A stretch of DNA of 64,000 bases from an uncultured Elusimicrobium sp. (GTDB lineage: Bacteria > Elusimicrobiota > Elusimicrobia > Elusimicrobiales > Elusimicrobiaceae), in the NCBI GenBank assembly GCA_902766765.1, contig CACXER010000017.1, forward strand, positions 3 through 64,002. Reading direction: 5' to 3'. A program made the translations under genes and the position numbers. The notes under the pieces were generated by a model. That model saw only the letters and a list, made by a program, of their open reading frames with translations. It made no database searches and was not told the origin of the DNA. Positions 4,569 through 53,959 of this stretch are shown one piece after another. Numbering within the stretch: the first letter of the stretch is position 1; each line of letters opens with the position of its first letter.

Positions 4569-4577
4569 AACATCCTC

Positions 4578-4973
4578 CTAAAAATAATCTTCCATATCGT
4601 TTAGTTCTTGTGCAAACGAACTATATTCATCATCACTGGATGCGTTCATATACGCGACCAACTCGTGCGCATTAAACGGCTCCTGGGAAGGCAGAAACGT
4701 CCACACAAACGCCGCACACGCTGCCGCAGTTAGTCCCGCCAGTTCCCACTTAAACCGCGCCCAAAACGGTTTTTTACGTGTCGTACGGGCCAGCAATTTA
4801 TCTATCACACGCTGCGGCGCGGCGGGGGGAGTTAAACCTTCGTCCAACTTGGCCAAAAATTTCAGTTCGGCTTGGCAAGCGGCGCACGTTTTCAAATGCC
4901 CCTCAAACGCCGTTTTTTCGGCCGGGTTTAATTCGCCTTGCGCGTATAACAAAACTTGTTCACACGGTTTCAT
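4578..4973 (-). CDS. Zinc-finger (zf-HC2/ZAS) membrane anti-sigma factor
   Basis: Start at MKPCEQ overlaps the sigma-factor stop (ATGA). HLKTCAAC (HxxxCxxC) motif followed by a single TM helix. Confidence 0.85.
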   Translation of the reverse strand: MKPCEQVLLYAQGELNPAEKTAFEGHLKTCAACQAELKFLAKLDEGLTPPAAPQRVIDKLLARTTRKKPFWARFKWELAGLTAAACAAFVWTFLPSQEPFNAHELVAYMNASSDDEYSSFAQELNDMEDYF

Positions 4974-5560: not shown

Positions 5561-5671
5561 AACTATATAACCCAAAACCTTAAATTTTTATTGCACTTGT
5601 TTAAATTATAATAAATCCCCGGTCGGGTTGCGTCCTTTATTGATATAATATTTCAGTGGAGGACAAAAAGA

Positions 5672-6640
5672 ATGTCTTTAGCAAAAAAAACAGAAAATTG
5701 GGTCAATGAACAAATTATTACCCGCGAACAACAAACCAAAATTTTGGCGTTTGAGGGTTCCCACGGAAACAATACTTTTTGGAACGTGGCCATGGGGATA
5801 GCCGGCAGTTTGATTGGGCTGGGGTTTTGTCTGCTGATTGCGGCCAACTGGCAAACCATTCCCGACGAGATAAAACTGGCGGGGGATTTTGCCGTGTTGG
5901 GTGGTTTTTTCTATGCTGCCTATTGGAGCGTGCAAAACCAACGCAACGGACTAAAAGAATTATTTGTCATTTTATCTTTCTTAGGTATCGGAGCCACGAT
6001 CGGGCTGGTAGGTCAGATTTTCCAACTCTCCGGCGGATGGACGAAAGCCGCTTTATTTTGGGCCATTCTCAGTTTGCCGTTTATATGGGTCAGCCGGGTC
6101 ATGTTCTTTAACGTCGTTTGGGTACTGTTAGTTTTAAGCACGTGTGATTTTGCGTGGCTGGAAAAATTCTGCAAGTATGCTTTTGAAGAGTTAAACATGG
6201 GCACGTTGCTTTCGCTAGTGGGCACGTATGCCATTTACACCAGTCTTGAGAATGCACGCCCGCAAACCGATAAATACACCCTGTTGCCCGCCGCTTTGGC
6301 TAAAATAGCCCTCGCCGGCGCGTATGCTATTGTGTGTTACGTCGGTATGCGGTGGGGCATTATAACGGAGAGCGCGATGGATATGGCAGGTGCGTACATC
6401 ATTGTATTTGGTTTTTTTGCCATGCGTATGTATATGGCCGTACGACACCAGGACAGGGGATCCTTTAAACGTAACGCCATTTGGGCGGAAGTCTATATCT
6501 TTATCATTTTCTCTTCCCGTTTAAACAATTTAGGACTGTCCGGGCTGGGATTTATCGGCAGCGGTTTACTCATCTTATTCTTTATTTGGGTCATGCGCCG
6601 TACCAGCCGGTATATTAAACAAATGGAGATTTTCAAATGA
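5672..6640 (+). CDS. DUF2157-family membrane protein
   Basis: W..EQIITREQ N-terminus, LIGLG..LLIAANWQTIP and IGLVGQIFQLSG. Paired with a GDYXXLXY gene, as is usual for this family. Confidence 0.8.
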   Translation: MSLAKKTENWVNEQIITREQQTKILAFEGSHGNNTFWNVAMGIAGSLIGLGFCLLIAANWQTIPDEIKLAGDFAVLGGFFYAAYWSVQNQRNGLKELFVILSFLGIGATIGLVGQIFQLSGGWTKAALFWAILSLPFIWVSRVMFFNVVWVLLVLSTCDFAWLEKFCKYAFEELNMGTLLSLVGTYAIYTSLENARPQTDKYTLLPAALAKIALAGAYAIVCYVGMRWGIITESAMDMAGAYIIVFGFFAMRMYMAVRHQDRGSFKRNAIWAEVYIFIIFSSRLNNLGLSGLGFIGSGLLILFFIWVMRRTSRYIKQMEIFK

Positions 6641-8332: not shown

Positions 8333-9649
8333 TTATTGTACGCCGTTCATCCATTTCTTAATGGGTTTAATCAGCACCAGCAGTACCAGCGAGGCGCATA
8401 TCGGCACAATCACCGGCCACGTAAAGAATTGCTGGAGCGTCATCTTGCTGAGTTGGCCCGAGTAGAGCCCTGCCAATTTCCCAGCCACAGACGTAGCCAA
8501 AAACCAAATACCCATAAACAGCGAAATAAACTTGGTGGGGGATAGTTTCGTTACCATAGACAGCCCCACCGGGCTCAAGCACAATTCACCCATGGTAAAC
8601 ATAAAGTACGCACCCACAATCCACCAGATACCCATTTTGTTATCGCCGCAGACAATCGTGGAGAGTAACAAAATGATATACCCCGTGGCAATGAGCCAAA
8701 ACGCCACCATAAATTTGGCGGGCACGCTCAAATCTTTGCCTCGCTTGCCCAAGTTGACCCACAGTTTAGAGAGCACCGGGGCAAACAACATAATAAACAA
8801 GGGGTTAATGGACTGAAACCATGCCGTCGGAATTTCAAACGCATGACCGAAGAAGTGAATAATACGATTGACGTGTTGGTCGGCAATTAAGTTGAGAGCC
8901 GCCCCTTTTTGTTCAAAAATCGCCCAGAAGAAAATGGTAAAGAATGCCATAATACATATAACGGCAATACGTTGCCATTCTTCTTTGGTAAGCGGGGCAT
9001 TTTTGACTTCTTTCACACTTTCCTTGACATATTCTTTGGGAGCTTTGCCTTTGCCTTGTAAATATTTGTCTTTTCCCCAAATGAATAAAGACAACCCGAA
9101 AATCATTCCGACTGCGGCCGAACCGAATCCGTAGACCCAACCGAATTTATGCGCCAGCGTTCCGGCGATAATCCCAGCCAGAAACGAACCTAAATTGATA
9201 CCCATGTAGAAAATGGTAAATCCACCGTCGCGGCGGGGATCGTTTTTCTCATACAAATCACCGACGATGCTGGAAATATTCGGTTTGAAAAATCCGTTAC
9301 CGATAATAATTAAGCCCATTGCTACCCACACGGCCGGCAAGGAGCCCTGCCCCATGCAAAACTGCCCCAACGCAATACAAATGCCGCCAATAATGATACA
9401 GGCACGTTTGCCGAGCCACCTGTCGGCAATATATCCACCGAACAAGGGGGATAGAAAAATCAAACTCATTAAATTGCCAAAGTATCCGCTGGCTTTTTCG
9501 GTAGAGAGGAGTAACTCTTTGGTAAGGTATAAAATAAATAAGGCTTTTAACGAATAGAAACTAAACCTCTCCCACATTTCCGTAGCAAATAAAAGGTAAA
9601 GTCCCGCGGGTTGCTTCTGTTTCATTGGAAGTGTCGTATCGTTTGACAT
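8333..9649 (-). CDS. Proton-dependent di/tripeptide transporter (POT/PTR family)
   Basis: EMWERFSFY (ExxERFxYY-like), GGYIADRWLG, GNGFFKPNIS, FYMGINLGS and GELCLSPVGLS. Confidence 0.93.
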   Translation of the reverse strand: MSNDTTLPMKQKQPAGLYLLFATEMWERFSFYSLKALFILYLTKELLLSTEKASGYFGNLMSLIFLSPLFGGYIADRWLGKRACIIIGGICIALGQFCMGQGSLPAVWVAMGLIIIGNGFFKPNISSIVGDLYEKNDPRRDGGFTIFYMGINLGSFLAGIIAGTLAHKFGWVYGFGSAAVGMIFGLSLFIWGKDKYLQGKGKAPKEYVKESVKEVKNAPLTKEEWQRIAVICIMAFFTIFFWAIFEQKGAALNLIADQHVNRIIHFFGHAFEIPTAWFQSINPLFIMLFAPVLSKLWVNLGKRGKDLSVPAKFMVAFWLIATGYIILLLSTIVCGDNKMGIWWIVGAYFMFTMGELCLSPVGLSMVTKLSPTKFISLFMGIWFLATSVAGKLAGLYSGQLSKMTLQQFFTWPVIVPICASLVLLVLIKPIKKWMNGVQ

Positions 9650-9799
9650 GAAGTGCTCCTTCGGATAAAAAATATTCTTACTTTCTCATTATAACATTAT
9701 TTTTATCCCCAAGCGCAAGGGGGGGAAAAGGTAAATTGTTTTCCCTTTCGTCAATATGGTAGAATAAGAAGGTGTATAAAACCTTATTTGGGAGGCACT

Positions 9800-10579
9800 A
9801 TGAAAGTTCTTATTTTAGCGGGCGGGCTGGGTTCGCGCCTGAGTGAAGAAACTGTTTTAAAGCCTAAACCGATGGTAGAAATCGGCGGACATCCGATCTT
9901 GTGGCATATTATGAAGATCTATTCGCATTACGGATTTAATGATTTTGTGATTTTAACCGGGTATAAATCGCACGTAATTAAGGACTATTTCGTCAATTAT
10001 TATCAACAATACTCCGATATTACCGTTAATATGGCTACTAATGAGGTCACTATCCACAAAACACGCCAAGAGCCCTGGCAAGTGACCATGCTCTACACCG
10101 GGCAAGACACCATGACCGGCGGACGTATTAAAAAGGCAACTTCTTACATCAATAACGAACCGTTCCTATTAACCTATGGCGACGGCGTAAGCGATGTGGA
10201 TATTGCGGCGTCTATTGCCGCCCACAAAGCATCTGGCAAACTGTGCACCATGACGGCTGTTAAGCCTTCCGGGCGTTTCGGGGCACTCACGATTGACAGC
10301 ACCGATACAATCACCTCATTTCAGGAAAAACCCAAAGGCGACGGGGCTTATATCAACGGCGGATTTTTTGTGTGTGAGCCGCAAGTAATGGATTATATTG
10401 GCGCGGGAGATGACGTTATTTTTGAACGAGCCCCCTTGGAAAAACTCGCCAAAGAAGGGCAACTCCATGCTTACAAACACGACGGTTTTTGGCAACCAAT
10501 GGATACCTTGAAAGATAAGACTTTCCTGACGGATTTGTGGCAAAGCGGTAAAGCCCCGTGGCAGAAATGGGAGGACTAA
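9800..10579 (+). CDS. rfbF: Glucose-1-phosphate cytidylyltransferase
   Basis: ILAGGLGSRLSEET..KPKPMVEIGG.PILWHIMK, TMTGGR, LTYGDG and FWQPMDTLKDK. GGAGG RBS before ATG 9800. Confidence 0.95.
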   Translation: MKVLILAGGLGSRLSEETVLKPKPMVEIGGHPILWHIMKIYSHYGFNDFVILTGYKSHVIKDYFVNYYQQYSDITVNMATNEVTIHKTRQEPWQVTMLYTGQDTMTGGRIKKATSYINNEPFLLTYGDGVSDVDIAASIAAHKASGKLCTMTAVKPSGRFGALTIDSTDTITSFQEKPKGDGAYINGGFFVCEPQVMDYIGAGDDVIFERAPLEKLAKEGQLHAYKHDGFWQPMDTLKDKTFLTDLWQSGKAPWQKWED

Positions 10580-10582
10580 ACC

Positions 10583-11653
10583 ATGTTTGCAAACACCTAT
10601 AAAGGCAAACGGATACTTGTAACCGGACATACCGGGTTTAAAGGAAGTTGGCTAACGCTGTGGCTTAAAGACCTCGGCGCCGATGTGTGTGGCTACGCGC
10701 TGGCCCCCAATACCACACCGAATTTATTTGAAGCCGTCCACGTAGCCGAAGGCATTAAATCGGTCATTGGCGATATCCGCGACCGCGAACTGTTAAACAA
10801 GACGTTCCAAGAATTCCAGCCGGAAATCGTTTTTCATTTAGCCGCCCAACCACTCGTGCGCTTATCGTATACGGAGCCCGTTTTGACGTATGAAACAAAC
10901 GTCATCGGTTCACTAAACGTATTAGAAGCCGCCCGCGCTTGCGGCAGCGTCAAAGCATTTGTCAACGTGACTACCGACAAATGCTACGAAAACAAGGAAA
11001 TCGCACGCGGCTACAAAGAAGATGAACCCATGGGCGGATATGATATGTATTCGTCCTCCAAAGGATGTGTGGAAATTTTATCTTCCTCCTACCGCCGATC
11101 TTTCTTGCAACAACCGGGAGCGTACGCTCTAGCCACTGCCCGCGCCGGAAACGTTATTGGCGGGGGGGATTGGGCCTTAGACCGTTTAATCCCCGACTGC
11201 GTGCGCAGTATTGAAGCCGGTAACGAAATTGAAATCCGTAACCCCGTAGCCACCCGCCCGTGGCAACACGTGCTGGAACCGCTTTCGGGTTACATACTCA
11301 TCGGTTATTTACTGCTGACCCAAGGGGCCAAATATGCCGAAGGGTTCAATTTGGGTCCGAAGCCCGATAGCGTACTGACCGTGGCGGATGTAGCCCAGCA
11401 AGTCGTTAAAAACTACGGCAAAGGTTCCGTTCACGTACATAAACGCGACAATCTGCACGAAGCCAATTTGCTGATGTTGGACATTACCAAAGCCAAAGAA
11501 GTCCTCGGCTGGTGGCCCACGTATACCGCTCCGGAAGCCATTGAAAAAACCGTGGCGTGGTACAAGCGTTTTTATCAAGGTGAGCCCATGCGTGGATTTA
11601 CCTTGCAACAAATTCACGAATACGAAGAGAAAATCACATGGAAAAAGAACTAA
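10583..11653 (+). CDS. rfbG: CDP-glucose 4,6-dehydratase
   Basis: VTGHTGFKGSWL, HLAAQPLVR, TTDKCY, YSSSK, ARAGNVIGGGDW and RPWQHVLEPL. Confidence 0.95.
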   Translation: MFANTYKGKRILVTGHTGFKGSWLTLWLKDLGADVCGYALAPNTTPNLFEAVHVAEGIKSVIGDIRDRELLNKTFQEFQPEIVFHLAAQPLVRLSYTEPVLTYETNVIGSLNVLEAARACGSVKAFVNVTTDKCYENKEIARGYKEDEPMGGYDMYSSSKGCVEILSSSYRRSFLQQPGAYALATARAGNVIGGGDWALDRLIPDCVRSIEAGNEIEIRNPVATRPWQHVLEPLSGYILIGYLLLTQGAKYAEGFNLGPKPDSVLTVADVAQQVVKNYGKGSVHVHKRDNLHEANLLMLDITKAKEVLGWWPTYTAPEAIEKTVAWYKRFYQGEPMRGFTLQQIHEYEEKITWKKN

Positions 11654-12996
11654 GACAAGCCGTAAAAGATGCAGCCAGCAACTATTTCCGCCAAGTTCAC
11701 GGCGGGAAACGGGAATTTAAATATATTCCGCCGTCCGGCAAATTGCTAGACGAAAACGATTTGCTCAACATGATTGATGCCAGTTTGGACATGTGGCTAA
11801 CCGCCGGACGTTTCAACGATCAATTTGAAAAAGAGTTTGCCCAATTTTTAGGCGTTAAATTTGCCCTGTCTACCAACTCCGGATCCTCGGCTAATTTGTT
11901 GGCACTCTCGGCGCTTACTTCTCACAAATTGGGAGATAAACGCTTGAAAAGAGGCGATGAAGTCATCACCGTAGCAGCCGGATTTCCTACCACGGTCAAC
12001 CCCATTATCCAACAAGGGTTAGTCCCTGTATTTGTAGATTGTGAAGTCGGCACCTACAATATCAACGCGTCACAAATTGAAGCGGCCCTATCGCCAAAAA
12101 CAAAAGCCATTTTTGTCGCCCACACCTTAGGCAACATGTTTGACATGGACGAAATTTTGGCCCTTTGTAAAAAACATAACTTGTGGCTCATTGAGGACTC
12201 CTGCGATGCCTTAGGGGCCGAGTGGAACGGTAAAAAAGCCGGAACGATCGGTCACATCGGTACGTATAGTTTCTATCCGGCTCACCATTTAACCATGGGC
12301 GAAGGTGGAGCCGTCGTTACGAACGACCCGCAACTCTACCGCATTATTTTATCCTTCCGCGATTGGGGACGCGATTGCTGGTGTAAACCCGGCGTGGATA
12401 ATACGTGCAAAAACCGTTTTAATATGCAACTGGGTAATTTGCCGTTTGGATACGATCATAAATATACGTACTCCCATATCGGCTTTAACCTCAAAATTAC
12501 CGACTGGCAAGCTGCTATCGGTGTGAGCCAGGTTAAAAAACTTCCGGCCTACATCCAAAAACGTACCGATAACGCTGCTTATTTAACAAAAGCCTTATCT
12601 GATTTACAAGATTATTTAATTTTGCCCACCGTCAAAGAAGGGGTAAAACCCTCGTGGTTTGGGTATCTGATTTCCGTGCGTGAAAATGCCCCGTTCACGA
12701 AACAAGAACTCGTGGAATATTTAGAGAAAAACGGCATCGGCACACGCCAATTATTCGCCGGAAACCTGTTGCGTCAACCCATGATGGTAGACAACGAAAT
12801 TGATTTGCGCATCGGCAATTCGCCCGTCTTAAAATCGTGTGATTTGACCGAAAAAGAATATGCTCTCTTACCGCAGACCGATTTTATTATGAATCATACC
12901 TTTTGGGTAGGCACGTTCCCGGCGCTTGGCGAAGAACAACTGGCTAAAACGTCGGCTGTTATTCACGCGTTTGTAAAAGAGAAAACGAACTCATGA
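11638..12996 (+). CDS. rfbH: CDP-4-keto-6-deoxyglucose 3-dehydrase E1 (RfbH/DdhC)
   Basis: FYPAHHLTMGEGG (His in place of the Schiff-base Lys), Fe-S motif RDCWC.PG.DNTC, YDHKYTY and GTRQLFAGN. Confidence 0.93.
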   Translation: MEKELRQAVKDAASNYFRQVHGGKREFKYIPPSGKLLDENDLLNMIDASLDMWLTAGRFNDQFEKEFAQFLGVKFALSTNSGSSANLLALSALTSHKLGDKRLKRGDEVITVAAGFPTTVNPIIQQGLVPVFVDCEVGTYNINASQIEAALSPKTKAIFVAHTLGNMFDMDEILALCKKHNLWLIEDSCDALGAEWNGKKAGTIGHIGTYSFYPAHHLTMGEGGAVVTNDPQLYRIILSFRDWGRDCWCKPGVDNTCKNRFNMQLGNLPFGYDHKYTYSHIGFNLKITDWQAAIGVSQVKKLPAYIQKRTDNAAYLTKALSDLQDYLILPTVKEGVKPSWFGYLISVRENAPFTKQELVEYLEKNGIGTRQLFAGNLLRQPMMVDNEIDLRIGNSPVLKSCDLTEKEYALLPQTDFIMNHTFWVGTFPALGEEQLAKTSAVIHAFVKEKTNS

Positions 12997-13877
12997 AAAC
13001 AATACTCCTCACCGGCGGAAATGGATTTATCGGCAAGAACATTCAAGAAAGTTTTTTAGCCGACAAGTACCATATTGTCGCGCCGCGGAGTTTTGAACTC
13101 AACTTGGCCGACACGCAAGCGGTAGATGATTATTTTAAGGACCACTCGTTTGATGTCGTCTTGCATGCCGCCACCAAACCCGGCCACCGTAACGCCAAAG
13201 ACCCGACGAATCTGTTTTACAACAACGTTCGTATGTTTGAAAACCTCGTACGCCACGCGGACAAATTCGGTAAGATGATCAATTTCGGCAGTGGGGCGGT
13301 ATATGATGTTGCCGCTGACAACCGCTTAGTTACCGAGGACCAAATCGGCCTGCGTTGCGGCAAAGACGATCATAGTTTTTGCAAATACGTAGTCCACAAA
13401 CGGATTGAAAATTTACCCAACGTGATGGACTTAAATATCTTCGGTATTTTTGGCAAATACGAAGATTGGGAAATCCGGTTTATTTCCAATGCCATTTGCA
13501 AAACGCTGTTTGGCTTACCCATTACGTTGCGGCAAAACCGCCGTTTCAGTTATTTGTACGTAAACGACCTAATGCCTATTTTGGAATATTTTATTGAAAA
13601 CACCCCCAAATACAAAAGTTATAATGTCACCCCCGACGCAGAAACGGAACTCTTACAAGCCGCACAACTCATTCAAAAAATTGCCGGGGGGAAAAATGAA
13701 ATACGCATAGCTGCCCCGGGGTATGGCCTTAGTTATACAGGCAGTAATGCGCGGCTAAAAAGCGAAATCAAAAATTTGCAATTTACCTCGCTTGAAAAAG
13801 CTATAACAGAATTGTACACTTATTATCAGACAAATCAAGATAAAATTGACCGAAATTTGCTCTTGGAGGATAAATGA
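12993..13877 (+). CDS. NAD-dependent epimerase/reductase (extended SDR)
   Basis: LTGGNGFIG and FGSGAVY. The catalytic YxxxK position reads HSFCK, which is atypical. Confidence 0.8.
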   Translation: MKTILLTGGNGFIGKNIQESFLADKYHIVAPRSFELNLADTQAVDDYFKDHSFDVVLHAATKPGHRNAKDPTNLFYNNVRMFENLVRHADKFGKMINFGSGAVYDVAADNRLVTEDQIGLRCGKDDHSFCKYVVHKRIENLPNVMDLNIFGIFGKYEDWEIRFISNAICKTLFGLPITLRQNRRFSYLYVNDLMPILEYFIENTPKYKSYNVTPDAETELLQAAQLIQKIAGGKNEIRIAAPGYGLSYTGSNARLKSEIKNLQFTSLEKAITELYTYYQTNQDKIDRNLLLEDK

Positions 13878-14551
13878 AAACATTGTTTTTATTAGGTGGC
13901 GGCGGAGCTATCGGCGGAGCCGTTAAAGATTTTTTTACCCAACAAGGGTATACCGTTTTGGCCCCGCGCAGTAAAGAATTGGATTTGTCCGATGAAAAGG
14001 CCGTCGTTACTTACATGAAACAATTTACTACGCCGGTGGATGCACTCATTTTCTGTGCGGGCCACAACGACCCTGCCGAAGTCGGTCAATTGACTACCCA
14101 GGAAATCAAAAAAACCTATCAAATCAATACCGTCAGTTTTGCTACCATTGTGGCGTATCTACGGAAACAATTTGAACAACGCAAGCAAGGCCACATTCTG
14201 GGCATATCTTCCTTATACGGCACGATTAGCCGCGAAGGCCGGGCCGCCTATGCGATGTCCAAACACGCCATGAACGGGCTGATACAAACTTTGGCCTTGG
14301 AACTGGGGCCTCACGGAATTTTATGCAACACGCTTTCCCCGGGGTTTGTGATGACACCGATGACCCAAAAAAACAACACCCCGCAAATGATAGAAACGTT
14401 GGCGCGGAAAATTCCGCTTGGGCACTTGGCTTCCCCGCAAGACATTGCCCGCGTTGCCTATTTTTTGTGTAGTGAACAAAATCAATACATTACCGGTCAA
14501 GACATTATTGTTGACGGCGGATTTATGGCAGGAGGATTTCAACACGTATGA
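13874..14551 (+). CDS. Classical short-chain dehydrogenase/reductase
   Basis: GGGGAIG, ISS, YAMSK, N.LSPGFV.TPMT and YITGQDIIVDGG. Confidence 0.9.
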   Translation: MKTLFLLGGGGAIGGAVKDFFTQQGYTVLAPRSKELDLSDEKAVVTYMKQFTTPVDALIFCAGHNDPAEVGQLTTQEIKKTYQINTVSFATIVAYLRKQFEQRKQGHILGISSLYGTISREGRAAYAMSKHAMNGLIQTLALELGPHGILCNTLSPGFVMTPMTQKNNTPQMIETLARKIPLGHLASPQDIARVAYFLCSEQNQYITGQDIIVDGGFMAGGFQHV

Positions 14552-15696
14552 GCGCATATCAATTTACCGTAGAAAACGAGGCCTTTTCTTTTGACACTTC
14601 TTTTTTGGAAAGCAAGTCTTTTACCGTTCATTCGGTACCCCGGGATTATCCGGTATCGCTTCCTCAAACGGACAATCCGGCCGAACTGATCCAACAAATG
14701 TTGGATGAAAACCCGAAAAATTTGTTACTCATTGACCAAAACGTGTGGAACTTATACCATGCTAATTTGCACGTAGATGAAAAGCGCGTGATGTTTGTGC
14801 AAGCCAACGAAGAATTTAAAACCTTTCACAACGGCGTAGAACAAGCCCTGACGTTTTTGGAAAAGAACGGTTTTGGCAAGGGGGAAACACTTATCGTCGT
14901 CGGTGGAGGTGTCACGGAAGATATCGGTGCCTTTGTAGGGGCCGTATATAAACGCGGGATTGCCTGGCGCTTTTTTCCGACTACGCTCCTGTCCATGTGC
15001 GACTCTTGCATCGGCGGAAAAACCGGTATCAATTACCATAAAGCCAAAAACCAACTGGCGCTTTTCTCGGCTCCGCGCCAAGTGATTATTTGTCCGGCCT
15101 TCTTACGCACGTTGCACGCGCGGGAGATTAAATCGGGCCTGGGCGAAATTTTAAAACTGTTTATCACAGGTGGGGAAAAACTGCTAGCCCAATTCCCCCG
15201 GTATGTATCTAAGGACGGAGAAGTCAAAGATTTTGCTTCTTTTACGCCTCTTATTTTAGGTGCCTTGGGTGTAAAAAAACAAATCGTGGAAAAAGATGAA
15301 TTTGAACTTAATATCCGCAAGAGTCTCAATTATGGGCATACGTTAGGTCACGCCATTGAAGTATTATCCGATTACGCTATTCCGCACGGCCAGGCCGTTA
15401 CGATGGGGGTACTCATCGTTAACGAAATGAGCCGCCGGCGCGGGTTGCTTTCCCAAAAGGAGTGTGATGAAATCCGTCAGTTGGCGCGCAACCTGTTTCA
15501 ATCGGCTCGGTTGTCGGCAAATATCGTCAAAGAATTGCCCTCGCTACTCTTAAAAGACAAAAAGAGCGTGGGTAACGCCGTCAACTTTGTATTTATTAAA
15601 CGTCCGGGTGAGACGGTTTTTGTAAAATTAGAAGTAAATGATGCGTTGACCCAAGAATTATTAGACATTATGCACGGAGAATTTGATGTCCTATAG
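14548..15696 (+). CDS. 3-dehydroquinate synthase / sugar-phosphate cyclase family protein
   Basis: VGGGVTEDIGAF, PTTLLSMCDSCIGGKTGIN, KNQL, SGLGEILK, LNYGHTLGHAIE and IPHGQAV; the metal ligands Glu/His/His are retained. Confidence 0.88.
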   Translation: MSAYQFTVENEAFSFDTSFLESKSFTVHSVPRDYPVSLPQTDNPAELIQQMLDENPKNLLLIDQNVWNLYHANLHVDEKRVMFVQANEEFKTFHNGVEQALTFLEKNGFGKGETLIVVGGGVTEDIGAFVGAVYKRGIAWRFFPTTLLSMCDSCIGGKTGINYHKAKNQLALFSAPRQVIICPAFLRTLHAREIKSGLGEILKLFITGGEKLLAQFPRYVSKDGEVKDFASFTPLILGALGVKKQIVEKDEFELNIRKSLNYGHTLGHAIEVLSDYAIPHGQAVTMGVLIVNEMSRRRGLLSQKECDEIRQLARNLFQSARLSANIVKELPSLLLKDKKSVGNAVNFVFIKRPGETVFVKLEVNDALTQELLDIMHGEFDVL

Positions 15697-16981
15697 TTTG
15701 CTACTGGATTTTGGTGCTACACGTATTAAATCCGCCCTGGTAGATGATACTACCGGGCAGATTGAGCACGTGCAGAGCCGCGCCTGTACACCCGCTATCT
15801 GCCACGGGGCACAATTTGAAATTCCGTTAGCGGAACTGACACATGATTTTTTGGAAATATGTAAAATCTACGAAGGATATGACTTTAAGCGGATTTTTGT
15901 GTGTAGCCAAATGCACGGCTTTGTGTTGTGTGATGAAAAGGAACAACCCCTCACCGAATATATCAGTTGGCAAGATGAACGGGCCACTTTGCCTCTATCG
16001 TCGGGCCCGAGTTCGTGGGAATTATTTTCTAACGCGTTTGATTCCACTTTTAAAGAAAAAACCGGCATGCGGCTACGCAGTTGCTTTCCCGTAGTCAAGA
16101 TTTTAGATTATGTGCGCCAACACCGGGCCGATTACATTAAAGTCCTTTCCTTGCCCGAAGCGTTGCTACTGGTCGGCAAGCCGTCCCATCAAGTGCACAT
16201 TACTATGGCCGCCGGAAGCGGCATGGTGGATTTTACTTCTTGTCAGCCCGATAAAGACATGTGCGACTTTTTACATCAAGAAGGCAAGGGTACCAAAATT
16301 GCGTTTAATACAATTTCTAAACAGGTCATTCCGGCCGGAACGGTTGAAATCAACCACCGGGACATCCCTGTCTATACGGCCATCGGTGACCACCAATGTG
16401 CTGTGTGGGGCGCGGGAAATACGTTGGAAACACTATCGTTTAATATCGGAACCGGCTCGCAGGTTTCCGCCATTTGTACACAAGCGCCTAATATCCCTCA
16501 GACCGAACGGCGCCACTTTTTAAACGGACTGGAATTGCAAACCATTACCCACATCCCGGCCGGGCGGGTCTTGGCGGCGTTGATGGATTTTTATCATGCG
16601 CTAACCGGGCGCGACGGTTGGGAGCATTTTACGGCCGTACCGTTGGAAAAAATCCAGCAAGTTACCGGACGGTTTAATTTATCATTTTTTAAAGATGCTT
16701 GGAATTACACAGACGGCGGCGGTATTACCGGGTTGACACTTACCGACTTAAACGAGCCTATTTTATGGGCTGAGTTATTCCGGTCGTTTGCCCAACAATA
16801 CGTACGGGCCGCCAACTATTTTTCTCCACCTAGAAAGCAACTGGTTCTAAGCGGAGGCAAATTAGCAAAACTACCTGCACTGGCTGGATTTTTTGAACAG
16901 GAATTATCTATGTCAGTGCACTTGTCGGCACAGACCGACGAAACTTTAGTAGGACTGGCAAAATTAGCACAAGAAATATAA
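15686..16981 (+). CDS. FGGY-family carbohydrate kinase (sedoheptulokinase-like)
   Basis: LDFGATRIKSAL, SQMHG, ISWQDER, AIGDHQCA, NIGTGSQVS and LSGG. Confidence 0.82.
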   Translation: MSYSLLLDFGATRIKSALVDDTTGQIEHVQSRACTPAICHGAQFEIPLAELTHDFLEICKIYEGYDFKRIFVCSQMHGFVLCDEKEQPLTEYISWQDERATLPLSSGPSSWELFSNAFDSTFKEKTGMRLRSCFPVVKILDYVRQHRADYIKVLSLPEALLLVGKPSHQVHITMAAGSGMVDFTSCQPDKDMCDFLHQEGKGTKIAFNTISKQVIPAGTVEINHRDIPVYTAIGDHQCAVWGAGNTLETLSFNIGTGSQVSAICTQAPNIPQTERRHFLNGLELQTITHIPAGRVLAALMDFYHALTGRDGWEHFTAVPLEKIQQVTGRFNLSFFKDAWNYTDGGGITGLTLTDLNEPILWAELFRSFAQQYVRAANYFSPPRKQLVLSGGKLAKLPALAGFFEQELSMSVHLSAQTDETLVGLAKLAQEI

Positions 16982-16994
16982 GAGAAGAACTTGT

Positions 16995-18077
16995 ATGAAA
17001 AATAAAATATTTGAAGACTTGTTTGTATTGGAACTCGCCAATAACCACTGGGGACGTGTGGACCGTGGTATTAAAATTATAGAAGACTTCGCTAAAATTA
17101 TCCGCTTTAATAACGTGCGCGCGGCCATTAAACTGCAGTTTCGCGACGTAGATTCTTTTATTCATAAAGATTTCAAAAGTCGCGAAGATATTCGCTATAT
17201 CAAAAAAACCATGGCAACTAAAATGGATATTAAAGACTATCAAATTTTAGTAGATGCCGTGCACAACAATAGTTGTATTACCATGTCTACCCCGTTTGAT
17301 GAAAAATCAGTGGACACGTGTGTCAAATTGGGTGTGGAGATTATCAAAATTGCCAGTTCGGATATCAACGATTGGATTTTAATTGAAAAAATTGCCACCA
17401 CCCGCAAACCGGTCATCGTATCTACCGGGGGGGCTTCTTTAAAAGATATAGACGATTTGGTGTTGTTCTTTGAACACCGCGATATTCCGCTCGCTATCAA
17501 CCATTGTGTCAGCGTGTATCCCTCCGAAAAAGAAGAACTGGAACTTAACCAAATTGACTTCTTGAAAAAACGGTATCCGGGCCACGTGATTGGTTTTTCC
17601 ACACACGAGAAAAATGACGATATAGAAAGCGCTATGCTCATGGCCTATGCCAAAGGCGCGCGCACTTTTGAACGCCACATTGATATTGAAGCGGACAATA
17701 TCCCCGTTTCGCCGTACTGCTCGCTACCGGAAGATTTGGACCGCTGGATCAAAGCATACCAAAAAGCCGTGCGCATTTGCGGACATGGGGCTGACACGAA
17801 ATCTATTCCTCCCCGCAAAGAAATTACATACTTAGACGCGTTAGTGCGCGGCGTGTATGCGCGGTGGGATTTGCCCAAAGGCCATAAACTTACCGAAGAC
17901 GACGTTTATTTGGCCATTCCGCTGCAAAAAGGACAAATTTCTTGCCGGGAATTCATGCGCGGGGAAGAATTACTCACAGATATTAAAAAAGATGAACCCA
18001 TTAAAATCAGTCAAATTGACAGCCCGTACGCACACAACAAGGCCTTAAAAGAACTGATTGAAAACCGCGGATTATAA
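16995..18077 (+). CDS. NeuB-family PEP-dependent ulosonic acid synthase with C-terminal SAF domain
   Basis: ELANNHWG, IKLQ, STPFD, KIASSD, KPVIVSTGG, HCVSVYP, GFSTHE, FERH and a SAF-like RGVYA..DLPKG tail. Confidence 0.88.
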   Translation: MKNKIFEDLFVLELANNHWGRVDRGIKIIEDFAKIIRFNNVRAAIKLQFRDVDSFIHKDFKSREDIRYIKKTMATKMDIKDYQILVDAVHNNSCITMSTPFDEKSVDTCVKLGVEIIKIASSDINDWILIEKIATTRKPVIVSTGGASLKDIDDLVLFFEHRDIPLAINHCVSVYPSEKEELELNQIDFLKKRYPGHVIGFSTHEKNDDIESAMLMAYAKGARTFERHIDIEADNIPVSPYCSLPEDLDRWIKAYQKAVRICGHGADTKSIPPRKEITYLDALVRGVYARWDLPKGHKLTEDDVYLAIPLQKGQISCREFMRGEELLTDIKKDEPIKISQIDSPYAHNKALKELIENRGL

Positions 18078-18079
18078 GT

Positions 18080-19852
18080 ATGATTAAACTGTCCGATTAC
18101 TTAGTTAAAAAACTGGAAAAATACGGCGTGCGTCACGTGTTCATGGTTACCGGTGGCGGCGCCATGCACTTGGACGATAGTTTCGGCCAGAGCAAAAAAA
18201 TCACACGTATTTTTAACCACCACGAGCAGGGTTCTGCCTTGGCCGCCGAGGGATACGCCCGTACCCACCAACAATTAGCCGTCGCGTGCGTAACAACGGG
18301 ACCGGGGGGGCTCAACTGTTTAAACGGAGTTTTCGGGGCGTGGACGGACAGCGCACCTATCTTGTTTATTTCCGGTCAGGTTAAATTTTCTACGACGATG
18401 GCCTCGTGTCCGCAAGTTCCTTTGCGGCAGTTGGGCGACCAAGAAGTGGATATCGTCCGCGTCGTAAAACCGCTTACCAAATACGCTAAAATGGTAACGG
18501 ACCCCTATGAGATTGACGCCGTCTTAGACGAAGCCATTTATCACGCCACCACGGGCCGCCCGGGCCCGGTATGGGTGGACGTACCGATAAATATCCAAGC
18601 CGCGCCGATTGACCCTAAAAAATTAAAAAAATTCCGCACACCTAAACCAAAAGCCGTTTCCGTGGAAAAAGCCCTTACCAAGGCGGCGGCTCTGTTGCAA
18701 AAAGCCAAACGGCCGCTTATTGTGGCCGGGCATGGCGTTCGCATTAGCGGCACGCTGGAAGTGCTGGAAAAATTACTGACCCAAACAAAACTCCCCGTCG
18801 TAACTACATTTAACGGAATTGACATTGTGCCGTCCGCACATGCTCAATTTGTGGGCCGCATCGGCACCGTGGGACAACGCGCCGGAAATTTTGCCTTGCA
18901 AAATGCCGATGTGATTTTGTTTTTGGGAACGCGCAATAATATCCGCCAAGTCAGTTATAACTGGGAAAACTTTGCCAAAAACGCGAAAAAAATTATCGTA
19001 GACATTGACCCCGCCGAACTAAAAAAACCGACGGTAAAGCCAGATTTGCCCATTTGCGGCGATTTAAAACAGGTCTTGCCGCTACTGGTTAAAAAACTTA
19101 AAAAACCGTTGGGAAGTAACGGCTGGCTCAAACATTGCCAACAATTGCGCGCCAAATATCCGCCGCTGCGCGAATTTGACATCAAACCCGCGGACAAAAT
19201 CCATCCGTATTATTTTATGGAACGGTTAGGGAAACTCTTACCCAAAGACGGTGTGCTGGTGGCCTCCAACGGTACAGCCTGCGTCACACTGTTTCAGGCG
19301 TGCGAATCCAAAAAAGGCCAGCGGTTATTTCTGAACTCCGGCGATGCGTCTATGGGCTATGGTTTACCCGCCGCTATCGGTGCCTGCGCGGCCAGCGGAA
19401 AAGACACCATGTGCATAGAAGGCGACGGAAGTATTATGATGAATTTGCAGGAATTGCAAACCGTTAAAACCAACAACTTGCCGATTAAAATATTTGTGAT
19501 TAAAAACGGCGAATATATTTCCATTATTCAAACTCAGCGCAACTTTTTCAACGGACGCTTGACAGGTTGTAATGCCCAAAGCGGCGTGGAAGTGCCGGAC
19601 TTTGTAAAAGTGGCCCAATCGTTTGGGTTACCCGCAGTACGCCTGAACAAAAACCGCGACTTGGAAAAGGGCCTTAAAAAAGTGCTTGCCATGCGCGGGC
19701 CCGTGGTGTGTGAGTTGGATTGTACGCCCAACTATACGTTTGCACCGAAACTCTCCGCGCGCAAATTACCCGACGGAACCATGGTTAGCCCCACGCTAGA
19801 AGACATGTTCCCGTTCTTGGATAGAAAAGAATTTGAGGAGAATAAATTATGA
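18080..19852 (+). CDS. ThDP-dependent acetolactate-synthase-like enzyme (YerE-like sugar C-branching enzyme)
   Basis: VTGGGAMHLDDS, HHEQ, TTGPGG, LRQLGDQE, GRPGPVWVDVP, SMGYGLPAAIG and ThDP motif GDGS...N. Sits inside a CDP-dideoxyhexose locus. Confidence 0.88.
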   Translation: MIKLSDYLVKKLEKYGVRHVFMVTGGGAMHLDDSFGQSKKITRIFNHHEQGSALAAEGYARTHQQLAVACVTTGPGGLNCLNGVFGAWTDSAPILFISGQVKFSTTMASCPQVPLRQLGDQEVDIVRVVKPLTKYAKMVTDPYEIDAVLDEAIYHATTGRPGPVWVDVPINIQAAPIDPKKLKKFRTPKPKAVSVEKALTKAAALLQKAKRPLIVAGHGVRISGTLEVLEKLLTQTKLPVVTTFNGIDIVPSAHAQFVGRIGTVGQRAGNFALQNADVILFLGTRNNIRQVSYNWENFAKNAKKIIVDIDPAELKKPTVKPDLPICGDLKQVLPLLVKKLKKPLGSNGWLKHCQQLRAKYPPLREFDIKPADKIHPYYFMERLGKLLPKDGVLVASNGTACVTLFQACESKKGQRLFLNSGDASMGYGLPAAIGACAASGKDTMCIEGDGSIMMNLQELQTVKTNNLPIKIFVIKNGEYISIIQTQRNFFNGRLTGCNAQSGVEVPDFVKVAQSFGLPAVRLNKNRDLEKGLKKVLAMRGPVVCELDCTPNYTFAPKLSARKLPDGTMVSPTLEDMFPFLDRKEFEENKL

Positions 19853-20712
19853 GTACTCTTCTTATTACCGGAGCAAGCGGCTATTTAGGTTCGCGTGTTA
19901 CCAAGCAGTTGCTTGCCAAAGGGCACACGGTTTTGGCTTTGACGCGTGACGAACACGACGTTCCAAAAGCACACAAAAACCTTAAAATATGCCCTCTTGA
20001 TAAAATAACGCCGCAAGATGTTTTTGCTCAAAATAAAATAGACGGTATTTTTCATTTTGCCACGTGTTATGGCAGGAGTGAACAAACAGCGGCTTACATC
20101 GCGCAAGTTAATTTACTCTTGCCGCTTACACTGCTGAGTTTGGCAGTCAAACAAGGAGTTCAATTTTTTATCAATACGGACACTATTTTACAGCCGAATA
20201 TCAATCCGTATTCGCTTACCAAAAACCAATTTTCACAATGGCTTGCGTTTTATGCAGACAAAATTCAAGCAATTAATATGAGGTTGGACCATTTTTACGG
20301 GCCCCATGACCACCCCGTAAAATTTATTGCATGGCTTATTAAAAATTTTAAAGAAAACGTAGATCACATTGACTTGACCGAAGGAGCCCAAACACGTGAT
20401 TTTGTCTATATCGATGATGTTGTAGCAGCATATATGTGTGTGTTTGAATCCCTTGACAAATTGCCGAAAGGGAAATTGAATAATTTTGAAGTAGGTTCCG
20501 GCGTAAAAACCAGCATTAAAGCCATGGTATTACAACTCCAAAAATTGATGCACAAAGAAAATGTAAAACTGAATTTTGGGGCTGTTCCTTATCGCAAAAA
20601 TGAAATGTTAGCGTACACGGTAGATATTTCCGCGTTGGAAGGCTTGGGATGGAAGGCCAAAGTTGTTTTACAAGAAGGATTACAAAAAATCATCACGGAG
20701 GAAAAATTATGA
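19849..20712 (+). CDS. CDP-3,6-dideoxyhexose 4-ketoreductase (paratose/abequose synthase, RfbS/RfbJ-like)
   Basis: ITGASGYLG, HFATCYGR, FINTDT, YSLTK, RLDHFYGP, LTEGAQTRDFVYIDDVV and FGAVPYR.NE. Confidence 0.8.
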   Translation: MSTLLITGASGYLGSRVTKQLLAKGHTVLALTRDEHDVPKAHKNLKICPLDKITPQDVFAQNKIDGIFHFATCYGRSEQTAAYIAQVNLLLPLTLLSLAVKQGVQFFINTDTILQPNINPYSLTKNQFSQWLAFYADKIQAINMRLDHFYGPHDHPVKFIAWLIKNFKENVDHIDLTEGAQTRDFVYIDDVVAAYMCVFESLDKLPKGKLNNFEVGSGVKTSIKAMVLQLQKLMHKENVKLNFGAVPYRKNEMLAYTVDISALEGLGWKAKVVLQEGLQKIITEEKL

Positions 20713-21734
20713 AATATTTAATTACCGGCGGTTGTGGTTTTTTGGGCTCTAACATTGCAGCCCGCATTTTGAAGGAAAACTTGGGTGAAGTGCTACTTCT
20801 GGATAATCTTTCCCGCGTCGGAAGCGACCAAAATTATACTTGGCTTAAAACTCTGGGTAAATTCACGTTCGTCAAAGCCAACACTTACGATTTTGAGGAT
20901 GTATTAAAAACAATTAAAAATTTCCAACCGGATATTATTTTCCACTTTGCCGGACAAGTCGCCATGACGACTTCCATTGCCAATCCCCGTTTAGATTTCA
21001 ACACCAATGTGTTGGGCGCTTTTAACGTGTTAGAAGCAGTCCGTCAGGTTGCCCCCAAATGCGGTATCATTTTCTCCAGTACCAATAAAGTATATGGCGA
21101 TTTAGAGCAATATACTTACGAGGAGGGGGAAACCCGCTATAATTGCGTAGAATGCCCTAAAGGATTTACCGAAAACACCCAGTTGGAATTTCATTCGCCC
21201 TACGGTTGCTCTAAAGGAGCCGCGGACCAATATATGTTGGATTGGGCGCGCATTTTCGGCTTAAAAACAGCTGTTTTCCGCCATTCTTCCATGTATGGCA
21301 GCCGCCAATTTGGAACATTTGATCAGGGGTGGATTAGTTGGTTCTGCCAAAAAGCCGTAGAAACGGAAAAAAATCCGGCCAATACATTTACCATCGCTGG
21401 AAACGGCAAGCAGGTACGTGACGTTTTGCATGCGCAAGACATGGCTGATTTATATTTGGCGGCCGCTAAAAACATTGAAAAAATTAAAGGGCAAGCCTTT
21501 AATATCGGCGGCGGAATTGAGAACAGTTTGTCACTCTTAGAATTATTTGCACTACTTGAAAAAATGTTGGGCATCAAACTAAATTACACCAAACTGGCCC
21601 CGCGTCAAAGCGACCAAAAATTCTTCGTGGCCGACATTACAAAGGCCACCCAACTTTTAGGATGGAAACCGCGCGTAAGCAAAGAAGATGGCATTGCCGA
21701 GATGGTAGCGTGGATTAAAGAAATGCAGAAATAA
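20709..21734 (+). CDS. rfbE: CDP-paratose 2-epimerase (CDP-tyvelose synthesis)
   Basis: LITGGCGFLGSN, AGQVAMTTSI, SSTNKVYGDL, SPYGCSKGAADQY, FRHSSMYG, DQGW and GNGKQVRDVLH. Confidence 0.88.
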   Translation: MKYLITGGCGFLGSNIAARILKENLGEVLLLDNLSRVGSDQNYTWLKTLGKFTFVKANTYDFEDVLKTIKNFQPDIIFHFAGQVAMTTSIANPRLDFNTNVLGAFNVLEAVRQVAPKCGIIFSSTNKVYGDLEQYTYEEGETRYNCVECPKGFTENTQLEFHSPYGCSKGAADQYMLDWARIFGLKTAVFRHSSMYGSRQFGTFDQGWISWFCQKAVETEKNPANTFTIAGNGKQVRDVLHAQDMADLYLAAAKNIEKIKGQAFNIGGGIENSLSLLELFALLEKMLGIKLNYTKLAPRQSDQKFFVADITKATQLLGWKPRVSKEDGIAEMVAWIKEMQK

Positions 21735-21744
21735 GGAAAAACCA

Positions 21745-23073
21745 ATGAATAAAGAATTTTTTTATAAACAAATTGATGCCTTGGAAAAACTGCACCCTGA
21801 CATTAACGAAATGGCATTGGCAAGACACATGAATTCGGTTTTTGTAAATTTACAAGCCGATCCATTTCAGTTAAGAGAACGAAAAAATAACAAAAAAATT
21901 CTTTCCGTTGAAGTGGGTTACGGACATGATGTCATCCGGCCCAGTTTATATAAATATTTCCGAGGACTCGGCTATGAAGTGGATTTTTTATTGTGCGGAA
22001 ATAAACCGGAAGACCGATGGAATTTTTTTCACCGAATTAAAGATTACAAAGCACGGGAACTTATCGGGAATGAGGCTTTTATCGCGGCGGTATTATCGTT
22101 GCCTGTTATGGAAGAATACGACTATATCTTTCTAAATTCCAACTTTGTTTATAATCAAAATCGCTTTGATTCTAATTTGGATTATAAGAAATTTATGAGA
22201 GCACTCGGTTTGAAAGATCGCTGTAAACATGGCTTCTTAACGATACCGCCGCATCCGGCCTATTATGAGAATACCGATACCAATCTCCGACACTTTACCC
22301 ATTTGGGCACCAAACATACGCCTATGCTAAGCGTTTCGTACTTTGGAGATGTTAAGATAACTCCCAAATCAGATAAAAATATTTTCTTAGTAACTGGTAA
22401 TATCAATCATGATCAGAAAAATCACGACATGGTTTTTGAGGCCGTCCGGCAATTACTTGACGAAGGAGTAACTAATTTTGAACTTTGGATAAACGGAATG
22501 CTCATGAACGAACTTGTCATTCCGCCCGCACTAAAGGAACATATTAAATATTTGGGTGAAAATAAACCGGAAACGCTTTTCCCGATTTTAGAACAAGCTG
22601 ATTTTATTATTGCCGGTTTGGATAGTACACAGCAGTGGCAAAGAAATAGTTACGCCCAAGGTACCTGTTCGGTGGGACTGATGTATTCAATGGGTTTTGG
22701 AAAAGTATATATTCTTGAAGATATGTTTGCCAGCGCATTTGGTTTAAATGACCAACAAGCCATCATCTATTCCAAAGGCATGTTAGCAAGCGCAATGAAA
22801 AAGGCCATTGCGTTATCGACAGTAGATTACGCCTCTATCCAAGGCCAAATTTTACAAGAAGCAGCCCGGCGAGAGGAACGTTCCTTCAAAGATATTGAAC
22901 AAACACTTAAAGAGTTAAAACGTGTTTACCGCAAGAGTGTAAACTCGGGGTTTATCTGGGATTTAATAAATAAACTCAATTACCTCCGCTTGAAAATTTG
23001 TTATTTTATCTTCAAAAACAGACGCGAACACTATGCGGAAAAATTAAAAAAATATACTAAAATTTTCCTATGA
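21745..23073 (+). CDS. Hypothetical protein in the glycan locus, possibly a divergent GT-B glycosyltransferase
   Basis: AT-rich 442-aa ORF. The C-terminal half has a GT-B-like pattern (KNHDMVFEAVRQL...IKYLG...EQADFII); no clear family motif. Confidence 0.45.
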   Translation: MNKEFFYKQIDALEKLHPDINEMALARHMNSVFVNLQADPFQLRERKNNKKILSVEVGYGHDVIRPSLYKYFRGLGYEVDFLLCGNKPEDRWNFFHRIKDYKARELIGNEAFIAAVLSLPVMEEYDYIFLNSNFVYNQNRFDSNLDYKKFMRALGLKDRCKHGFLTIPPHPAYYENTDTNLRHFTHLGTKHTPMLSVSYFGDVKITPKSDKNIFLVTGNINHDQKNHDMVFEAVRQLLDEGVTNFELWINGMLMNELVIPPALKEHIKYLGENKPETLFPILEQADFIIAGLDSTQQWQRNSYAQGTCSVGLMYSMGFGKVYILEDMFASAFGLNDQQAIIYSKGMLASAMKKAIALSTVDYASIQGQILQEAARREERSFKDIEQTLKELKRVYRKSVNSGFIWDLINKLNYLRLKICYFIFKNRREHYAEKLKKYTKIFL

Positions 23074-23127
23074 TAAATAATTATTTGTGCCTGCTTCTAA
23101 ATCAAGCAAACTGCAATTGTTAAAAAT

Positions 23128-23370
23128 ATGTCTATACCAAAACACATTACACTATCAGATATTCAATTTTTTGTGGCTACGCACAACAGGGCTGGCTTAT
23201 TGAAAACAACCCTGGAAAGTTTACTATCCCAAACCGCAGGGATTCCCCAAATTATAGCCCTTGATTTTGCTAGCGTAAAAGACATGGCCCAACAACTATT
23301 CAAATTGGATGCATCAAAACAAAAATTTGGCCCAAAAACAAGAAAAATAACTTCAACGGAAATATGCTAG
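23128..23370 (+). pseudogene. Truncated GT2 glycosyltransferase remnant
   Basis: The first ~45 aa are a GT2 N-terminus (FFVATHNRAGLLKTTLESLLSQT..PQIIALD); the ORF then becomes unrecognisable and stops at 80 aa with no DxD motif. Confidence 0.65.
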
Positions 23371-23441
23371 AATAAGGAATACAATTTCCCGAACAAACCC
23401 CCGGGGTATTGTGTCAGGAAATTCCCTAACAGGAGATAACT

Positions 23442-25572: not shown

Positions 25573-25582
25573 GGTGTCATAT

Positions 25583-26755: not shown

Positions 26756-26763
26756 ATACGAAT

Positions 26764-27705: not shown

Positions 27706-27706
27706 T

Positions 27707-28831: not shown

Positions 28832-28860
28832 TACGCGGCTATGCACAACAAAGGTTCCCT

Positions 28861-53957: not shown

Positions 53958-53959
53958 TT

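Follow-up and report, generated by a model that had tools for sequence, protein, structure and literature searches.

A NeuB-like donor module in a YerE-type operon of a gut Elusimicrobium, predicted to build a caryophyllose-like branched sugar

Long-branched sugars such as caryophyllose shape the way hosts and phages perceive bacterial surfaces, and the assembly of their side chains is only partly known. Here we analyse a stretch of 64,000 nucleotides (the window) from the genome of an uncultured gut Elusimicrobium (Candidatus Avelusimicrobium, G000; 1.36 Mb, 87% complete). It contains a nine-gene operon on the + strand (9788-19852) in which genes for a CDP (cytidine diphosphate)-activated dideoxyhexose and for a thiamine diphosphate (ThDP)-dependent carboligase are combined with a NeuB-like synthase, a sugar kinase, a dehydroquinate synthase (DHQS)-like protein and a short-chain dehydrogenase/reductase (SDR), predicted to prepare the acyl donor.

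A unifying scheme for acyl-branched sugars was published by Steitz et al. in 2022: an aldolase makes a hydroxylated 2-keto acid, a YerE-like ThDP enzyme joins it to CDP-4-keto-3,6-dideoxyglucose, and a YerF-like reductase follows (PMC9306805). [quoted passage not shown] The clusters for erwiniose (ErwE/ErwF/ErwI/ErwJ, Pectobacterium atrosepticum) and 'gastriose' (MyGE/MygF/MygI, Mycobacterium gastri) share their logic with the operon in the window, namely a dedicated C-C bond enzyme that yields a 4-hydroxy-2-keto acid, YerE-like addition to CDP-4-keto-3,6-dideoxyglucose and an NAD(P)H-dependent reductase. In contrast to that scheme, the donor synthase of the window belongs to another fold family and would use phosphoenolpyruvate (PEP), not pyruvate; the kinase, the phospholyase and the ketoreductase have no counterpart there. 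The yersiniose A pathway of Yersinia pseudotuberculosis (DdhA-D, YerE, YerF) has the same acceptor, the same kind of ThDP-dependent coupling at C4 and a later step that reduces the acyl carbonyl, but YerE takes pyruvate, giving a two-carbon branch.

Caryophyllose is 3,6-dideoxy-4-C-(D-altro-1,3,4,5-tetrahydroxyhexyl)-D-xylo-hexopyranose (PMC5706390), as a first reading of this DNA from its letters alone (the original prediction) had correctly described it. Its donor has been drawn as pyruvate plus an aldehyde (compound 28), the origin of which is absent from the main text (PMC9306805). In Mycobacterium marinum, mmar_2329 is placed within the lipooligosaccharide (LOS) locus, and a supplementary table lists MMAR_2329 as '3-dehydroquinate synthase family protein', MMAR_2331 as a member of the aldolase/citrate lyase family, MMAR_2332 as ThDP-binding and MMAR_2333 as GT2 (PMC12395582). 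MMAR_2329 stands two genes from MMAR_2331, the caryophyllose aldolase, and MMAR_2332, the ThDP enzyme; by annotation, the caryophyllose section of the M. marinum LOS locus thus carries a DHQS-family gene. Neither a function for MMAR_2329 nor a source of the deoxy end of caryophyllose is stated in the literature searched. Retro-biosynthetically, a linear side chain ending in CHOH-CH3 is what phosphate elimination followed by ketone reduction would predict.

The M. marinum locus and the operon in the window have in common a YerE-like ThDP gene, a DHQS-family gene, the genes for the CDP-dideoxy-keto sugar (PMC9306805) and GT2 genes, and the side chain that we predict for the window (1,3,4,5-tetrahydroxyhexyl, 2',6'-dideoxy) is of the same constitution as that of caryophyllose. 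They differ in the donor synthase: an HpcH-type aldolase serves in M. marinum, while the window has a NeuB-like PEP-dependent synthase and an FGGY-family kinase; the host of the window is, moreover, a gut Elusimicrobium of reduced genome. In M. marinum, one of the known producers that the original prediction had proposed to look at, the DHQS-family gene is present, by its annotation, and the pair of NeuB-like gene and kinase is not; the window thus has a variant of the known gene set.

We propose, with slightly more confidence than an even chance would warrant, that the operon makes a CDP-activated 3,6-dideoxyhexose with a long, hydroxylated, deoxy-ended side chain at C4, that is caryophyllose or an isomer, by a variant of the published scheme. 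The NeuB-like enzyme would join PEP and a four-carbon aldose into a 3-deoxy-heptulosonic acid, to which the FGGY kinase would add a terminal phosphate, most likely on the free acid. The DHQS-like enzyme would then perform the first half of the DHQS reaction (NAD-mediated oxidation, phosphate elimination and re-reduction) without cyclisation, and a classical SDR (SDRc) would reduce the new ketone to give a 3,7-dideoxy-4,5,6-trihydroxy-2-keto acid. The ThDP enzyme would decarboxylate this acid and add the remainder to the C4 ketone of the CDP-sugar; an extended SDR (SDRe1) would reduce C1', and GT2 enzymes would hand the sugar to a surface glycan. We infer the length and stereochemistry of the chain, the step at which the kinase acts and the absence of cyclisation. 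The original prediction had called such a pathway biochemically undescribed. Its general principle is in fact published (PMC9306805), and the statement stands for the donor module of NeuB-like enzyme, FGGY kinase, DHQS-like phospholyase and SDR, which is the new element, is widespread and does not appear in the literature searched. Neither is YerE mentioned there jointly with NeuB or with dehydroquinate.

The nine open reading frames (ORFs) either overlap their neighbours by 4-16 nt or stand 2-13 nt apart. The original prediction placed them at 9800-19852; all nine are present on the + strand, and the unit extends further, to 27705. Families were assigned with Pfam and curated equivalog profiles, and bit scores were judged against the curated cut-offs. 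The first three genes are rfbF, glucose-1-phosphate cytidylyltransferase (9788-10579; TIGR02623, 402 bits, cut-off 300), rfbG, CDP-glucose 4,6-dehydratase (10583-11653; TIGR02622, 476 bits, cut-off 278), and rfbH (E1), the pyridoxamine phosphate-dependent CDP-6-deoxy-4-keto-glucose 3-dehydrase (11638-12996; NF011936, 679 bits, cut-off 423). Judging from these strong matches, RfbF, RfbG and RfbH would yield CDP-4-keto-3,6-dideoxyglucose.

The last of the nine genes encodes the ThDP enzyme (18080-19852), which contains all three Pfam ThDP domains. Its best PDB match is the YerE-like JanthE (8RPH), at 395 bits against 254 for the best acetohydroxyacid synthase, and its ThDP-binding GDG motif (G448, D449, G450) is invariant in the family alignment. 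A census, in which the ThDP alignment was scanned against one genome per species and partner genes were then sought with tblastn, gave 80 YerE-like loci from many phyla, with 42-64% identity in the scan itself. The ThDP genes of these loci are 42-78% identical to that of the window and stand mostly beside rfbFGH, rfbH being present in 46 of them. By these comparisons the ThDP enzyme belongs to the YerE-like clade, and it is predicted to carboligate a 2-keto acid onto the C4 ketone of the CDP-sugar. SDRe1 (12993-13877; Pfam Epimerase) directly follows rfbH, a position that it also holds in Elusimicrobium simillimum (L030), in an ENA metagenome contig (L032) and in a third relative (L013, 76% identity); it is the predicted YerF-like reductase of the C1' ketone left by the ThDP step.

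In place of an aldolase of the HpcH/HpaI or BphI type, none of which is found in the operon, the window has the predicted PEP-dependent NeuB-like synthase (16995-18077; NeuB 134.7 bits, SAF 26.2 bits). Of the 80 loci, 20 have a NeuB-like gene, 25 an HpcH/HpaI aldolase and 10 an aldolase of the HMGL/BphI type, and two donor-synthase types never occur together (0/80). The NeuB-like gene lies at most 1.5 kb from the ThDP gene in 18 of its 20 loci. This mutual exclusion and this proximity are the strongest evidence for its role, as they argue that the NeuB-like gene occupies the slot of the aldolase, that of the donor synthase. Its orthologues adjoin YerE-like genes in many phyla (57-77% identity); those of Gastranaerophilales, Endomicrobium and others (70-77%) lie between rfbFGH and the ThDP gene, in loci that have neither a DHQS-like gene nor a kinase and often have a HAD phosphatase, which is found in 10 of the 20 NeuB-type loci. 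We predict that the NeuB-like enzyme makes a 3-deoxy-2-ulosonic acid donor.

Enzymes of the NeuB family condense PEP with an aldose; NeuB itself, PseI, LegI and the Kdn-9-phosphate synthase of Bacteroides thetaiotaomicron, which works with a phosphatase, are examples. Unlike the products of NeuB, PseI and LegI, that of the window enzyme is proposed to serve as an acyl donor and not to be CMP (cytidine monophosphate)-activated. The protein scores far under the equivalog cut-offs for NeuB (127, cut-off 400) and PseI (117, cut-off 340), and its best PDB match is 3g8r, deposited as 'probable SpsE', with 239 bits, where NeuB reaches 85. Taken by themselves, the Pfam and NCBIfam names are compatible with two unrelated pathways in one operon, with plain yersiniose or another 3,6-dideoxyhexose made from pyruvate and a sialic-acid-like or Kdo-like acid made by the NeuB-like enzyme; a strong match to the CMP-sugar synthetase family, perhaps kdsB, also lies elsewhere in the genome, on another contig. 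We hold such a division to be very improbable, as family searches of the operon proteins returned no NeuA, NeuC or amino-sugar gene, the NeuB-like protein is far below the NeuB and PseI cut-offs, and in 20 of 80 loci its orthologues adjoin YerE-like genes, in none of them together with an aldolase. A sialic acid pathway as such was rejected on the two scores and on the lack of NeuA and NeuC in the operon.

None of the 80 loci returned by the ThDP-alignment scan comes from a known producer. A protein search with a Bradyrhizobium aldolase returned close relatives only (at least 69% identity), and the loci of M. marinum and R. palustris were not reached.

Several relatives carry further genes around the NeuB-like and ThDP pair. 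On an Endomicrobium contig (L028), a 99-residue remnant of a HAD phosphatase (9698-9997) lies just upstream of the NeuB-like gene, and a second NeuB gene with a UDP-GlcNAc 2-epimerase gene, likely a true sialic-acid-type pair, follows a few kb downstream (19004-21086). A Stercorousia contig (L025) has an Acyl_transf_3 gene between the NeuB-like and ThDP genes, then a polysaccharide pyruvyl transferase gene (11108-12247, 14039-15157), a sign that Gastranaerophilales may decorate the branched sugar further. After the ThDP gene, several relatives have GtrA, a GT2 and an unannotated protein of 640-835 residues (L013, 4170-4586; L030, 15323-19125; L028, 13181-17032). Such an arrangement fits a transfer in which a polyprenyl-phosphate carrier brings the sugar to an acceptor in the periplasm; in the window GtrA is missing, and three GT2 genes are present instead.

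The deoxy end of the chain is assigned to SDRc (13874-14551; adh_short_C2, 144 bits) and to the DHQS-like protein (14548-15696). The latter contains both DHQS Pfam domains and scores under the cut-offs of aroB (TIGR01357, 253, cut-off 305) and of TIGR04425, the AroB-related putative sugar phosphate phospholyase (308, cut-off 400). A second genome of the genus (G018) has a DHQS-like protein of an aldolase-linked subtype which passes the TIGR04425 cut-off with 409 bits, against about 305 for the subtype of the window; the window protein, which falls below it, thus represents a sister subtype.

All 13 residues of the DHQS active site, which serve NAD, metal, phosphate and carboxylate, are kept in the window protein: R136, D152, K158, N168, E200, K203, K243, R257, N261, H264, H268, H280 and K339. 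An alignment with the DHQS of Helicobacter pylori and the family alignment show that none of them varies, whether in the two DHQS-like subtypes or in true AroB proteins. We take them to correspond, by motif and exact spacing, to R130, D146, K152, N162, E194, K197, K250, R264, N268, H271, H275, H287 and K356 in the Aspergillus nidulans numbering, where K250 and R264 presumably bind the carboxylate of DAHP (3-deoxy-D-arabino-heptulosonate 7-phosphate). Since the equivalents of these two residues are kept, the substrate is most likely a DAHP-like, seven-carbon 3-deoxy-2-ulosonate 7-phosphate, in other words what the donor synthase makes, rather than a small sugar phosphate. With seven carbons in the substrate, the NeuB-like enzyme would in turn have to combine PEP with a four-carbon aldose or the phosphate of one. 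The original prediction had the DHQS-like enzyme act on an ulosonate phosphate, an order that the kept carboxylate-binding equivalents back. Its action on the CDP-sugar after coupling, which would lead to a caryose-type carbocycle, was set aside on the same residues.

We predict that the DHQS-like protein is a non-cyclising phospholyase of this DAHP-like phosphate, and that SDRc reduces the (omega-1) ketone that phosphate elimination would leave. With AroB and the sugar phosphate cyclases it shares the fold, the 13 of 13 active-site residues and, by prediction, the first steps (oxidation, phosphate elimination, re-reduction); it differs from AroB in that its gene lies in a sugar operon, is always paired with an SDR gene and encodes an enzyme proposed to stop before the aldol cyclisation.

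The same sugar could be reached in another order, if the kinase acted on a free small sugar, the DHQS-like enzyme and SDRc turned it into a deoxy-ended aldose (e.g. 4-deoxytetrose), and the NeuB-like enzyme then added PEP. This would provide for the aldehyde 28 that Steitz et al. draw next to pyruvate, with no origin in their main text (PMC9306805), and it would suit Ca. Avelusimicrobium luingense (G019), in which SDRc, DHQS-like and FGGY genes form a self-contained cassette apart from the NeuB-like and ThDP genes. We nevertheless find this order unlikely: the K250 and R264 equivalents, with every other DAHP-contacting residue, are invariant, which is unexpected for a substrate with neither a carboxylate nor a pyranose ring, and by our own reasoning the oxidation of a hydroxyl beside a free aldehyde is chemically awkward.

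Equally doubtful, in our estimate, is a full cyclisation by the DHQS-like enzyme, to give a quinate-like or carbocyclic compound as a separate glycan substituent or branch with pyruvate or the unmodified NeuB product left as the substrate of the ThDP enzyme. The late steps of the DHQS reaction can run spontaneously, and the catalytic residues do not differ from those of true DHQS. The G019 cassette stands apart from the sugar genes, and a candidate phyla radiation (CPR) bacterium has an orphan copy: in Candidatus Magasanikbacteria (L114), a gene of the DHQS-like subtype (4558-5700, 51% identity) has no partner genes within 8 kb. However, a completed reaction would do away with the 2-keto acid on which the ThDP enzyme depends, and a dedicated donor synthase would then serve no purpose. 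In addition, the census has the pair of DHQS-like and SDRc genes solely as an addition to YerE-like loci of the aldolase or NeuB type (9/9), the M. marinum locus has a gene annotated to the DHQS family next to a side chain that is linear, and chorismate synthase, searched as a marker of the shikimate pathway, was not found in the 87%-complete genome.

This last search bears also on whether the DHQS-like gene could be a housekeeping aroB, which the original prediction had named as an outcome that would speak against the pathway. The gene is indeed the only aroB-like match in the genome, yet the missing match for chorismate synthase, together with the absence of an aroB-like gene from 22 of 24 other genomes of the genus that were searched, indicates that it is not a housekeeping gene. 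A housekeeping aroB was rejected on these grounds.

In the census, the pair of DHQS-like and SDRc genes was found in 9 of the 80 loci, eight of them with an HpcH aldolase and one with a NeuB-like gene. An SDRc-type gene is present in all nine loci with a DHQS-like gene, and directly upstream of it wherever the gene order was read. A HAD phosphatase occurs in none of these nine, against 23 of the 71 others (one-sided Fisher p 0.04, uncorrected for relatedness), a distribution that fits two alternative fates of the terminal phosphate. A locus of a Methanomassiliicoccaceae archaeon (L031) contains rfbF, rfbH, a ThDP gene, an extended SDR gene, SDRc, a DHQS-like gene (54% identical to that of the window), a BphI-like aldolase gene, a HAD gene and GT87-family genes. 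As an archaeon carries this type of cluster, the pathway would cross the domain boundary; and as the pair is seen with HpcH, NeuB-like and BphI-like enzymes, it appears to be an optional module able to follow any of three donor synthases.

The kinase (15683-16981; FGGY_N, 55.7 bits) is a divergent member of the FGGY family. With the Pfam and equivalog profiles, no FGGY C-terminal domain was detected in it and no equivalog matched; its sole PDB match, gluconate kinase 3gbt, is marginal (E 0.005), and an atlas search placed it only among generic FGGY clusters. In six contexts the SDRc, DHQS-like and FGGY genes follow one another in this fixed order. G019 has the three as one unit beside an Mla operon, the NeuB-like and ThDP genes by themselves on a second contig and, on a third, rfbH about 860 bp upstream of another ThDP gene, a distant one (35% identity); the loci of this genome are L010 (C2), L024 (C7) and L117 (C8). 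We predict, from this gene context, that the kinase installs the terminal phosphate that the DHQS-like enzyme later removes, and it more likely acts on the free ulosonic acid than before the condensation. A JGI metagenome contig (L116) has both a kinase and a HAD gene; its gene set fits a course in which a phosphatase frees an aldose, the NeuB-like enzyme and the kinase act in turn, and the DHQS-like enzyme follows.

The nine-gene arrangement is not a product of chance, as the block recurs elsewhere: in identical order in E. simillimum (L030) and the ENA contig (L032), and in other orders in a Brevinemataceae genome (L115) and the JGI contig (L116). The original prediction had proposed to look for the block beside rfbFGH in other genomes, and it does recur so, across phyla. 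Within the genus, G018 has rfbF, rfbG, rfbH, SDRe1 and ThDP genes 75-86% identical to those of the window, whereas an HpcH aldolase replaces the FGGY kinase and the NeuB-like enzyme, and SDRc and the DHQS-like protein are only 40% and 36% identical. By these identities, the whole donor cassette appears to have been exchanged within the genus while the acceptor and coupling enzymes stayed, which argues that both cassettes deliver a similar acid. That a sugar-derived 2-keto acid replaces pyruvate, and that the DHQS-like enzyme and an SDR would make the deoxy end of the chain, as the original prediction had it, fits all of the comparative evidence.

Several points weigh against the pathway as we propose it. 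The roles of the donor-module enzymes are deduced from sequence and not from assays, and the seven-carbon length of the donor from the DHQS-type active site only. As this active site equals that of true AroB, cyclising and non-cyclising enzymes are not distinguishable by sequence. The archaeal locus L031 holds a HAD gene along with its DHQS-like gene. A Verrucomicrobia locus (L051) has NeuB-like, SDRc and DHQS-like genes with neither a kinase nor a HAD gene within 10 kb; the kinase step is thus not universal. The tie to MMAR_2329 is drawn from a database product name and not from sequence comparison. The E3/AscD partner of RfbH is found neither in the operon nor in the conserved block elsewhere, and the genome has a single FNR-like ORF (289 residues) on another contig, so that 3-deoxygenation would have to rely on another electron donor; the Yersinia cluster presumably carries the E3 reductase gene, ddhD, that is missing here. 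Finally, we know of no glycan structure or chemistry for any Elusimicrobium or for its phylum.

Past 19852, the operon goes on to 27705 on the + strand with three extended SDR genes, a GT1-like gene and three GT2 genes. Two of the extended SDR genes (19849-20712, 20649-21734; Pfam Epimerase and GDP_Man_Dehyd families) stand outside the block conserved in L030 and L032, and possibly serve further tailoring or a second sugar. They are followed by a gene for a GT1-like protein of 442 residues (21745-23073), with a weak Glyco_trans_1_4 match below the gathering score, and by the third extended SDR gene, SDRe4 (23442-24503; Pfam Epimerase), to which weakly similar SDR genes (about 26-29% identity) adjoin the ThDP gene in several other phyla. 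The three GT2 glycosyltransferases (24487-25572, 25574-26755, 26764-27705; Pfam Glycos_transf_2) are candidates for sugar transfer; the first 45 residues of the third are 73% identical to a GT2 fragment that ends the G018 locus. A scan for promoters and terminators over 9400-29000 gave the same counts as shuffled sequences and is uninformative on the limits of the operon.

Elsewhere in the window, a second sugar operon (51979-62625) encodes a GT2, a GDP-mannose 4,6-dehydratase (507 bits), an epimerase-family protein, a transketolase and an SDR, along with a DegT-type aminotransferase, a GDPD-like protein, a sulfatase-family protein and another GT2. The transketolase, the best match to this enzyme in the genome, is split into an N part (55034-55822) and a C part (55825-56709); within a GDP-sugar cluster, it could provide a two-carbon branch or a chain extension on another sugar. 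A single ORF of 2159 residues occupies 41923-48402 on the + strand.

More generally, we see roughly even chances that an 'interrupted' enzyme of the DHQS family forms, with an FGGY kinase and an SDR, a three-gene cassette that phosphorylates, eliminates and reduces and so converts a sugar acid's terminal CH2OH to CH3, and that NeuB-family synthases are a third, widespread source of donor acids for YerE-like enzymes. The two together would account for the 6'-deoxy end of caryophyllose-type sugars and also for what MMAR_2329 does in M. marinum. If true, it would give the dehydroquinate synthase fold a non-cyclising job and make the NeuB fold a maker of acyl donors. Interest in YerE-like enzymes and the acids that they take as donors extends to the biocatalysis of chiral tertiary alcohols. 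Genes such as those of this operon routinely carry the names aroB, neuB, xylulokinase and acetolactate synthase. As a result, metabolic models wrongly credit their hosts, reduced gut Elusimicrobia among them, with parts of aromatic and branched-chain amino acid synthesis and of sialic acid synthesis.

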